Below, one piece after another: positions 24,755 through 26,285 of a stretch of DNA of 64,000 bases (positions within the stretch are counted from its first letter, which is position 1; each line of letters starts with the position of its first letter). The DNA is from Escherichia coli. Its GTDB lineage: Bacteria; Pseudomonadota; Gammaproteobacteria; Enterobacterales; Enterobacteriaceae. The translations under genes and the position numbers were made by a program. The notes beneath the pieces were generated by a model. The model worked only from the letters and a program-made list of their open reading frames with translations, was not told the origin of the DNA and ran no database searches. The stretch lies in assembly GCF_003334815.1 (NCBI RefSeq), contig NZ_QOWO01000012.1. One strand, given 5' to 3'.

Positions 24755-24973
24755 TTACCATTCCTCGCGCAGCTTACGCTGATATTCGACACCATCTTCC
24801 TCACACCCTTGCCAGATGCCAGGAACACTGGTTCTTGCTGTTTGCGATTGATTTATCAGGTATTGATCTACCGCTTCCCTTAATAGGTCCGCACGAGGAA
24901 GATTACGCTGCACCTCGAGATCATCAAGTTGCTTAATCACCTCATTCGATAAATCGAGTAAAATTCTGCCCAT
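24755..24973 (-). CDS. yiiF: Small ribbon-helix-helix (CopG/Arc-like) protein, 72 aa
   Basis: ORF 24755..24997; ATG at 24973 gives [39 protein letters not shown]...; the N-terminal beta-strand plus two-helix pattern is typical of RHH DNA-binding proteins. The yiiF versus yiiE name is assigned by gene order and may be swapped. Confidence 0.72.
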
Positions 24974-25088
24974 ATCTATACCTGCCAGAGAGTTCATAAA
25001 TATCTCGCCAATATCATTTTTGAATCTATGGAGAGAAAAGTACCCTTGCCGAATCTTTAAAGAAAGCTCATTTACGCATCATTTTTTA

Positions 25089-25110
25089 TTTTTGCGAGGC
25101 GTTTTCCAGA
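25089..25110. repeat. Conserved 22-nt element, copy A (upstream of the 24755..24973 RHH gene)
   Basis: tttttgcgaggcgttttccaga is identical to 25527..25548; flanking similarity extends further (tcattta upstream, gttgcagtt downstream). Confidence 0.85.
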
Positions 25111-25214
25111 TATGATGTAACAGTTGCAGTTATTATAAGTTCAAGTAAAACAGCCTTGTATTAATACCAGAATAAGGGCATCTGTTTTTTATATTCAAGA
25201 ATGAAAAATTTTTG

Positions 25215-25433
25215 TCATTCCTTATGCTCCTTACACTGATCATCAACACCAACTACCTCCCCCTTTTGCCTGCCTCCCTTTGCTTTACGCACCGGGAATT
25301 GCTGACGTTCCAGATATTGCTCTACCGCTTCGCGTAAAATTGCAGATCGTGAAACCTTACGCCAGCCCCGAAGCTTGTTCAGCCGTTTAATTGCCTCTTC
25401 TGATAAATGAAGAAAAACCGTATTCATCGCCAT
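25215..25433 (-). CDS. yiiE: Small ribbon-helix-helix (CopG/Arc-like) protein, 72 aa, paralog of the preceding gene
   Basis: ORF 25215..25460; ATG at 25433 gives MAMNTVFLHLSEEAIKRLNKLRGWRKVSRSAILREAVEQYL...; aligns with the 24755..24973 product (LxLSxExIKxLxxL...LREAVxQYL). Confidence 0.72.
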   Translation of the reverse strand: MAMNTVFLHLSEEAIKRLNKLRGWRKVSRSAILREAVEQYLERQQFPVRKAKGGRQKGEVVGVDDQCKEHKE

Positions 25434-25526
25434 TACCAATACCTTACATATATTACTCATTAATGTATGTGCGAAAATTACGCCGGAAAATCATTTAAAA
25501 AAAGCGGATTTTTGCATGTTGTTTTG

Positions 25527-25548
25527 TTTTTGCGAGGCGTTTTCCAGA
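25527..25548. repeat. Conserved 22-nt element, copy B (upstream of the 25215..25433 RHH gene)
   Basis: tttttgcgaggcgttttccaga, identical to copy A. Confidence 0.85.
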
Positions 25549-26285
25549 AATAATAAGAGTGTTGCAGTTGTTTCATTTATTACTCAAAAATGGTTTAGTT
25601 ATCGCCCAGGATGAATTATGGGTGCTATGAATATATTATATTCAGAGATATTTATTTGCATAATCTGAATGGTGTAGCCGAAAAACGTCAGCATCCTAAC
25701 AGCACCAGGATTTAAGGTGAAATTAATCTTTCATCACAGACCGGTCAGTACTGCCACCAACCGGTCTTTACTTGCTCATCGTTATAATTTTGTTGGTAAC
25801 AGTTCGGGAAAGTTGTTTTTCTAAATTAACAACAGAATAACTTTCTTGTTTAATGAGATTAATATTGGCAACCATTATAGCCTCCTTCCCACGGTTTAAG
25901 AGCAAACATACAACATAATTATTCATAACATACAGAGCAGTAAATGAATGATACTGACAATGATGCTAGTCCATTATCTTTGCATAATATTTGTTAGCTA
26001 TAGATTTTAAAAATATTTATGAGAAAAGTATGGCACCAGAGGGGGTTTTGACTATCAAAAATCGCTCAAACATGAACTAAGATGATGAATTAAGCATTAT
26101 CTGCGATAATTGCCACTCAGTTCTACAAATAATATTTAAATGCTCCTGAACAGTGATGTAGCAAGACACGTATGGAGCCAACGAAGAATAAAAATTTATA
26201 GAGTTCTTATTTAATATAACCGAAATAGCCAAGGACTAATATAAATGACCTGAATGAGAGAGGCAGCACCGCCCCTCTCCATCAG

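Follow-up and report, generated by a model that had tools for sequence, protein, structure and literature searches.

Apparent remains of a vapBC toxin–antitoxin module with predicted CRP-S sites between fdhE and fabY of Escherichia coli

The window analysed here is a 64,000-nucleotide stretch of an Escherichia coli chromosome, and the subject of the present study is the interval in it between fdhE (23496–24425, plus strand) and fabY/yiiD (26286–27275, minus strand), which holds the small genes yiiE and yiiF and a repeated non-coding element. The open reading frame (ORF) list gave two ORFs of 72 aa on the minus strand of this interval, at 24755–24973 and 25215–25433, with a start-to-start distance of 460 bp. 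The two products were 41% identical in a MAFFT alignment and had the pattern L.LS.E.IK.L..L...R......LREAV.QYL in common, in keeping with a first-pass annotation of this DNA, which had described two same-strand paralogues ~460 bp apart. That annotation had also taken the pair to be without a characterised function; as genes, however, they are already known, being listed in the K-12 annotation as yiiE (b3889; 25215–25433) and yiiF (b3890; 24755–24973, 72 aa). A longer, 80-aa form of YiiF, with its start at 24997 on the same strand, is the version in PDB 2K5J and most RefSeq records.

Upstream of each gene lies one copy of an ungapped 100-nt direct repeat, at 25035–25134 for yiiF and 25473–25572 for yiiE, the copies being 438 nt apart and 73% identical to each other. 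Inside the repeat, the 22-mer TTTTTGCGAGGCGTTTTCCAGA is present in two exact copies on the minus strand, at 25089–25110 and 25527–25548, so that the earlier description of one 22-mer with similar flanks upstream of both genes was accurate. No further match with up to three mismatches was found in the 64 kb, where shuffled sequences lead one to expect 0, and an identical run of at least 22 has a probability of P = 0.0099 if the 73 matches in 100 positions are placed at random. The 22-mer lies 94–115 nt from the 72-aa start of yiiE, 116–137 nt from the 72-aa start of yiiF and 92–113 nt from the start of its 80-aa form. The repeat was locus-specific: across 5,414 of the 5,426 complete E. coli genomes, the median number of places was two in each genome. 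A dispersed repeat family, which the first pass had named as a possibility to be checked, was thereby ruled out.

We then considered the protein family. YiiE matched the ribbon-helix-helix (RHH) model RHH_1 of Pfam with E=1.6e-11 over model positions 2–39 of 39. The match of YiiF to this model was weak (E=0.0093), its orthologues carry PF01402, and the protein is 100% identical to PDB 2K5J (2k5j_A) and aligns end to end with 7by2_A, described as a 'CopG family transcriptional regulator', at 68% identity (E=1.7e-27). The entries 7BY2 and 7BY3 are those of crystallised Klebsiella pneumoniae VapBC (Kang et al. 2020, J Med Chem 63:13669, as cited in PMC11117207), and their chain B, 'Ribonuclease VapC', matched the gene adjoining the K. 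pneumoniae yiiF orthologue with E=4e-78. The tail of YiiF matches that of VapB in 7BY2, including WQ.CEEDG.EYQR.LR.EW. Thus the VapB-type architecture, a DNA-binding N-domain plus a conserved toxin-binding tail, is present in YiiF, with the tail diverged in YiiE. An AlphaFold2 monomer model of YiiE showed an extended N-terminus, helices at 12–24 and 29–45 and a disordered tail, and fold searches with this monomer model returned no significant match. The RHH_1 match of YiiE and the 2K5J and 7BY2 identities of YiiF place both proteins, on their sequences, in the RHH family of the CopG/antitoxin type, supporting the CopG/Arc/antitoxin assignment made at first pass.

Scanning one genome for each species gave 34 loci. 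A yiiF orthologue was found between fabY and fdhE in ~25 species of at least ten genera (Citrobacter, Klebsiella, Kluyvera, Salmonella (diarizonae), Trabulsiella, Lelliottia, Franconibacter, Kosakonia, Cedecea and Pseudocitrobacter), and in those species it was directly followed by an intact 124-aa PIN gene, vapC, overlapping it by 1 nt in the sequence TAATG. Escherichia albertii has an intact vapB–vapC pair, an intact vapC follows yiiF in 57 of the 5,426 complete E. coli genomes, and in E. coli 2016C-3878 the gene order is yiiE, yiiF, vapC, fdhE. In the window, by contrast with the antitoxin gene plus overlapping intact PIN gene that define a VapBC pair, only a vapC pseudogene was found, at 24465–24755 on the minus strand, its ATG still overlapping the yiiF TAA by 1 nt. 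It was detected with tblastn using Citrobacter VapC (E=3e-4) and by DNA alignment against the intact E. albertii vapC, and it consists of a 5′ stub with the start codon and a few codons more, an insertion of repetitive extragenic palindromes/bacterial interspersed mosaic elements (REP/BIME), a middle remnant at ~24519–24600, two deletions (213 nt, internal, and 15 nt) and a 3′ remnant at 24465–24518, the last being the final 18 codons (LEVVTRNTRDGVVTPYEL followed by the stop). The REP/BIME cluster, at 24571–24710, is an insertion relative to E. albertii and gave sub- or near-threshold Rfam matches to the REP-derived 'sRNA' families naRNA4 and ES036. Other E. coli lineages have different vapC truncations.

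The first-pass annotation, having seen no toxin-like ORF after either gene, preferred orphan regulators to a classical toxin–antitoxin (TA) pair. With a vapC pseudogene after yiiF and an intact vapC elsewhere, the lack of a toxin ORF is secondary, and that preference does not stand: judged by their relatives, yiiE and yiiF are orphaned antitoxins of a classical vapBC. The locus would be what is left of a chromosomal vapBC, encoding an RHH antitoxin and a PIN ribonuclease, that occupies the fabY–fdhE gap throughout the Enterobacteriaceae; yiiF would be the VapB orthologue, its vapC partner having been destroyed here by the REP insertion and the two deletions. A plasmid search for close homologues returned only mislabelled chromosomes and distant VapB–VapC pairs of other phyla.

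Next, we asked what the 22-mer may be. In 22 distinct non-Escherichia orthologous sequences, its blocks TGGAAA and CTCGCAAAA had major-allele frequencies of 0.99 and 0.98, against 0.81 for the four central bases and 0.50–0.56 for the flanks, giving a 9-4-9 layout of 22 bp. This conservation supports the 22-mer as a constrained cis-element, and in this respect the earlier suggestion of a selected element held up. As quoted by Sondberg et al. 2019 (PMC6728893), Sinha et al. 2009 give the non-palindromic 5′-TGCGA-N6-TTCCA-3′ as the CRP-S motif for E. coli. Both copies match it at 10 of 10 positions, with the core TGCGA-GGCGTT-TTCCA (plus-strand reading) at 25093–25108 upstream of yiiF and the corresponding core at 25531–25546 upstream of yiiE, and these are the only exact matches in the 64 kb, where 0.25 would be expected. 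In almost all of the other genera fetched, the orthologous position also held an exact CRP-S core, whose distance upstream of vapB was constant.

Activation from E. coli CRP-S sites is reported to be class-I-like, to need activating region 1 (AR1) of CRP and to require Sxy (Sondberg et al. 2019, PMC6728893). At Psxy, it is the conserved half that lies nearer the promoter, and Sxy dependence takes both of the unequal halves, such that variants with two conserved halves have Sxy-independent activity and those with two weak halves have none (PMC6728893). In gene sense, the conserved TCGCA half of the 22-mer is likewise promoter-proximal. The Psxy site in K-12, located via the published halves, is TTTCGGAAAGAGCCTCGCAAAT, identical to the element at 17 of 22 positions in the same orientation, and for E. 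albertii the identity is 17/19. In addition, stretches of 12 nt are common to the element and the upstream regions of ppdD (ACGCCTCGCAAA) and ybaV (CGCCTCGCAAAA). With a matrix made from six K-12 competence-regulon promoter sites, none of them from the yiiE–yiiF locus, the two copies ranked first and second of 127,958 positions, at 24.2 and 23.7 bits, against a next best score of 16.7 bits and a background mean of −13 (sd 6.2). The next-best scores, 16.7 and 15.5 bits, fell on two sites not far from each other near the start of the window, at 2629–2650 (plus strand, TTGCTGAAAAATTCTCGCAATT) and 2935–2956 (minus strand, TTGCGGCAATTGCCTCGCGTAT).

The anatomy of the upstream regions was obtained from an alignment of 24 orthologous and paralogous sequences. 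The distal element, that is the 22-mer, stands at a fixed 134–135 nt from the MGRILL codon. A proximal element at the start codon reads TGATATAC-TGGAG-GTATATA, with an extended −10 (TGnTATACT) inside an inverted repeat; vapC-carrying E. coli and other genera retain this form intact, the sequence of the intact repeat being TGATATACTGGAGGTATATA. For K. pneumoniae KPN_04185 ('yiiF'), a leaderless mRNA has been mapped with its transcription start site (TSS) 4 nt before the ATG (Kim et al. 2012, PMC3415461 Table S4), directly downstream of TGATATACT, and therefore the proximal promoter is real. The repeat covers the proximal −10 and the start, which is where an antitoxin operator usually lies, and toxin neutralization and operator autoregulation may be expected from this inverted repeat over the mapped promoter. 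In the window the yiiF proximal promoter/operator is decayed (GATATT-GGCGA-GATATT, 24999–25015, minus strand), and in vapC-less E. coli 6 of 25 positions in the proximal promoter region are changed relative to the vapC-intact strain, with the 22-mer unchanged.

Just upstream of yiiE there is a different inverted repeat, ACATACATT-N7-AATATATGT (25446–25470, minus strand), which is a candidate operator for YiiE. Its E. albertii counterpart is ACATATATT-N7-AGTATATGT, and genes with a YiiE-like N-domain (E-type) have the proximal repeat ACATAYATT-N7-ARTATATGT at the same place as the repeat of those with a YiiF-like N-domain (F-type). The predicted DNA-facing β-strand residues differ between the two types at all three positions (R/L/D compared with T/F/H). 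The proximal repeat thus co-varies with the RHH type and the distal element does not, and this co-variation suggests the proximal repeats as the operators.

These observations bear on the claim of the first pass that the 22-mer is an operator shared by both genes, bound by YiiE and/or YiiF for auto- and cross-regulation of the paralogues. Autoregulation is normal for RHH antitoxins, each gene has its own copy, and the 9-4-9 layout, with conserved blocks ~11.5 bp apart, has a geometry that also fits two RHH dimers. However, the element is the same at F-type-only loci (Citrobacter and Klebsiella) and at an E-type-only locus (E. albertii) despite the differing strand residues, it lies ~100 bp upstream of the mapped TSS, and it is a perfect match to an independent host-factor motif, whereas it is the inverted repeat over the mapped promoter that co-varies with the RHH type. 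Since the element is unchanged whichever type follows, the strand residues differ and the proximal repeat co-varies, the shared-operator claim is unsupported. The 22-mer is probably not an operator of YiiE or YiiF themselves, and we regard their binding to it as unlikely.

It is equally improbable, in our estimate, that the element is bound by CRP alone, independently of Sxy, or by some other host factor that acts as a dimer on a comparable two-part site. Canonical CRP sites, that of gal for example, also have TCGCA as a half-site, and a 5-N6-5 arrangement is common to the CRP/FNR family in general. The C6/G17-type half together with the TTCCA half is, however, the exact asymmetric combination reported to confer Sxy dependence at Psxy, and the close identity of the element to the Psxy, ppdD and ybaV sites also speaks for a CRP-S site proper.

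Several points weigh against the reading as a CRP-S site. The six sites of the matrix were chosen by ourselves, and published half-site sequences back only that of Psxy; Cameron 2006 gives weak CRP bandshifts at the ppdD promoter and no site sequences, along with Sxy/CRP-dependent induction of ppdD and sbmC. The palindromic Haemophilus influenzae CRP-S consensus was rejected as a criterion, as the element matches it at 13–14 of 20 positions and 24 window sites are comparable, so that it does not discriminate. Relative to the K. pneumoniae TSS, the only mapped one, the site centre is at approximately −99.5, which is non-standard for class I, and a separate upstream promoter has to be assumed for the CRP-S site; no strong −35/−10 pair for sigma-70 is conserved upstream in the aligned regions. 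CRP binding at yiiE/yiiF was not reported in the full-text literature that we searched, which excluded Sinha et al. 2009 (J Bacteriol 191:5180). Finally, the site may be silent in K-12, because yiiE lies in an H-NS/SlyA-controlled region: yiiE was up 2.5-fold upon SlyA overproduction and is flagged as H-NS-bound (PMC5797941), and YiiE is a SlyA target in genomic SELEX (gSELEX; PMC6134199).

A candidate for the required distal promoter comes from the same alignment. The hexamer TACTTT (25037–25042, minus strand) lies 66 nt downstream of the T of TGGAA, its yiiE counterpart is TAATTT (25475–25480, minus strand), and 26 of the 27 sequences compared, orthologues and paralogues together, have a T-A-N-N-N-T hexamer at this offset of 65 or 66 nt. 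This hexamer could serve as the −10 of a CRP-S-dependent promoter; the site centre would then be near −70, and the distal starts would be expected near 25030 for yiiF and 25468 for yiiE.

Outside Escherichia and Shigella, no relatives of YiiE were found, and a search for a donor of its N-domain among 1.84 billion representatives gave only a handful of proteins, 50–72% identical. In the N-domain (codons 1–38) the synonymous divergence (dS) between yiiE and yiiF is 1.67, and between E. coli and Citrobacter yiiF it is 1.43, so that the N-domain split is equally old. For the last 20 codons, dS is 0.38 with a ratio of non-synonymous to synonymous divergence (dN/dS) of ~1.1, and the upstream 100 nt have 27% differences (K ~0.33). 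Hence the N-domains, to judge from these distances, are anciently diverged and the upstream repeat and C-terminal tail are of recent common ancestry. In the tail of YiiE, the conserved W, Y and L are replaced by R, D and E and the last conserved W is gone, the final TGG now being TGA. The N-domain of yiiE is under purifying selection (dN/dS 0.06 compared with E. albertii). E. albertii and some E. coli have single genes in which an E-type N-domain is joined at LREAV(D/E)QYL to an F-type tail, and the reciprocal E/F chimera is also present. Among vapC-less E. coli, yiiF has a dN/dS of 0.4–1.5, on small counts, indicating relaxed constraint. The simplest reading of these data is duplication, segment replacement and recurrent recombination: an Escherichia-only tandem duplication of vapB with its upstream region would have given yiiE, the proximal repeat and N-domain of one copy would then have been replaced by a divergent allele, exchange between the copies would have recurred since, and the toxin-binding tail of yiiE would now be drifting. 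In Escherichia whittamii (locus L045, 3321–3389), an F-type copy of the element is fused directly to the last vapC codons; it looks as if yiiF and most of vapC had been lost in a deletion via CGCAA(T)A microhomology.

Because of this mosaic ancestry, with old N-domains next to a young upstream repeat and tail, the argument that the coding sequences have diverged while the non-coding 22-mer is conserved is confounded, and the first pass cannot be followed in using it. The same history lends something to the view that the element has no present function and that its copies owe their identity solely to recent events, be it duplication, gene conversion or recombination where mosaic parts join. The upstream repeat and tail do share a recent ancestor, the element sits at junctions of left flanks (A and B) with right parts (E, F and a relE cassette), a haplotype breakpoint lies ~35–45 nt downstream of it, and some Escherichia lineages have single substitutions in it. 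We nevertheless give this view little credence, as the two blocks are conserved across genera against poorly conserved flanks, 15 conserved element positions are unchanged in E. albertii although dS in the adjacent coding sequence is 0.21, and the identical run of 22 has P = 0.01.

A sigma-54 (−24/−12) promoter in the element, with GG-N10-GC in TGGAAAACGCCTCGCA, has the correct GG and GC spacing and a variable middle, but we find it scarcely credible, as the element scores 3.7 bits, equalled by 345 window 17-mers, with a matrix from 50 chromatin immunoprecipitation sequencing (ChIP-seq) sites (minimum 7.9, median 15.8), the intergenic Table 1 of the sigma-54 ChIP-seq study has no peak here and its main text no mention of yiiE, yiiF or yiiD, and sigma-54 gSELEX gave no peak at yiiE/yiiF. 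The best sigma-54 matrix matches in the window are two plus-strand sites that have the same sequences as sites in Bonocora et al. 2015: 23017–23033 (CTGGCGCGAATTCTGCA) in fdoI corresponds to their IS47, and 46590–46606 (TTGGCACAGATTTCGCT) to their glnA site OS37 (glnAp2). Further candidates were rejected. The element forms no sigma-70 promoter on either strand, as there is no conserved −35/−10 pair at legal spacing; a conserved small ORF across it fails on reading frames that differ between the copies and, by eye, on the lack of a conserved start codon; mimicry of the tRNA-fMet anticodon loop fails on a variable centre with no compensatory pattern supporting a stem; and an att-like or integration core, suggested by the inserted cassettes that the element flanks, is not needed, since these are explained by homologous exchange at the one island of conservation, and there is no recombinase in the neighbourhood.

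Taken together, we consider it probable that the locus, as a whole, combines a decayed vapBC, a mosaic yiiE and an inherited CRP-S element in a circuit resembling that of hicAB. The 22-mer would be the distal control element inherited with the module, a consensus CRP-S site of low affinity, at which cyclic AMP (cAMP)–CRP would activate in a class-I-like manner only with the co-activator Sxy/TfoX. A distal promoter dependent on CRP and Sxy would feed transcription into each gene, and the proximal promoter at the start codon, overlapped by the inverted repeat, would be autorepressed by the cognate RHH protein.

Further features of the interval vary between strains. A degenerate palindrome resembling a LexA box, CTGGTATTAATACAAG in gene sense, lies at 25155–25170 and is the remnant of a CTGT-N8-ACAG box. 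Boxes of this LexA type were found where a divergent α/β-hydrolase gene is present; the gene is absent from the window, which has the degenerate palindrome only. Conservation of the canonical box CTGTATGGATATACAG, at 16 nt from the Abhydrolase_3 start codon (for example locus L002, 3812–3827), extends across genera, which suggests that the divergent α/β-hydrolase may be an SOS-regulated esterase. In the yiiD–yiiE spacer, ~630 nt upstream of the element, there is an RpoS-holoenzyme SELEX peak (PMC5493296). Many strains that are otherwise identical to the window have an insertion sequence, IS1, within the 1.9-kb stretch, as in NZ_CP017220.1 (4266178–4268855), where the match is ~777 bp longer than the query. 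A 604-aa ORF with no Pfam match lies between fabY and yiiE in some E. coli (locus L006, 1054–2868), and in Escherichia fergusonii a 245-aa ORF, also with no Pfam match, lies between yiiE and yiiF (locus L047, 2018–2755).

A third exact TGCGA-N6-TTCCA was found at E. albertii and E. coli loci (L046, 1203–1218; L044, 70–85; L051, 2554–2569), ~120–140 nt upstream of a toxin-first cassette of a relE/parE-like gene (103 aa) and a gene for a NadS/helix-turn-helix (HTH)-XRE protein (96 aa). This relE/parE–nadS cassette is present at the locus in 2,733 of the 5,426 E. coli genomes, and its order and families recall those of toxTA.

As kinds, the genes yiiE and yiiF, a VapBC remnant and a CRP-S site are already known; the link between this VapBC remnant and CRP-S was not found in the searchable literature, and may be in Sinha et al. 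2009, which lay outside the search. If the prediction holds, two old y-genes of E. coli gain an origin, as a decayed vapBC, and a regulatory input, cAMP–CRP plus Sxy, and a PIN/RHH module joins the short list of competence-regulon TA systems, which bears on why competence regulons repeatedly recruit TA modules. The locus also makes a natural series available for following an antitoxin and its control sites after toxin loss, beginning with intact vapBC, continuing with truncated vapC and ending in orphan antitoxins and E/F chimeras; at this locus the proximal operator decays and the distal host-factor site persists. Only tentatively do we propose the wider idea that throughout the Enterobacteriaceae the CRP/Sxy competence regulon has a conserved, hitherto overlooked member in vapBC, represented in most E. 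coli by its two orphaned RHH antitoxins of orthogonal specificity; this would be the third TA family after hicAB and toxTA. If this were true, some Escherichia would have three consecutive CRP-S sites, driving relE/parE–nadS, yiiE and yiiF(–vapC), and a swap of DNA-binding domain and operator would have made two autoregulators with one host input and no cross-talk.

Comparison with known systems puts the locus in context. In FitAB of Neisseria gonorrhoeae and other RHH-VapB/PIN modules, the RHH antitoxin wraps the PIN toxin with its C-terminal tail and the operator is an inverted repeat in the module's own promoter. No CRP-S input is known for FitAB, and the yiiE–yiiF locus differs from it in having lost its toxin and duplicated its antitoxin. 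The closest relative is K. pneumoniae VapBC, which lies at the orthologous fabY–fdhE locus, and has a VapB 68% identical to YiiF over the full length, with the same distal CRP-S-type element and the same proximal TGATATACT promoter upstream; the window differs in that the PIN toxin is a pseudogene, the yiiF proximal promoter/operator is decayed and there is a second, diverged vapB-like gene, yiiE. As a site, the 22-mer resembles the Psxy CRP-S site (Jaskolska & Gerdes 2015; Sondberg et al. 2019, PMC6728893) in its asymmetric TGCGA and TTCC(G/A) halves, although Psxy has TTCCG where the 22-mer has the consensus TTCCA, and the function of Psxy is experimental whereas that of the 22-mer is predicted.

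Among TA operons, hicAB has two promoters, a distal P1 on which CRP and Sxy act through a CRP-S site, and a proximal P2 that the antitoxin represses (Turnbull & Gerdes 2017, as described in PMC6957337). This type II layout, with the antitoxin-repressed promoter near the start codon, is like the one that we infer for yiiE and yiiF; the families are unrelated (HicA/HicB compared with PIN/RHH), the toxin gene comes first in hicAB, and at yiiE–yiiF the toxin is lost and the distal promoter is predicted. In H. influenzae, toxTA (HI0660/HI0659) is a chromosomal type II TA operon that belongs to the CRP/Sxy competence regulon via a CRP-S site (PMC6957337). The yiiE–yiiF locus is likewise a chromosomal type II TA locus with CRP-S sites, predicted in its case, but toxTA encodes a ParE/RelE-family toxin and an HTH-XRE antitoxin and so resembles the relE/parE–nadS cassette of other Escherichia rather than VapBC.

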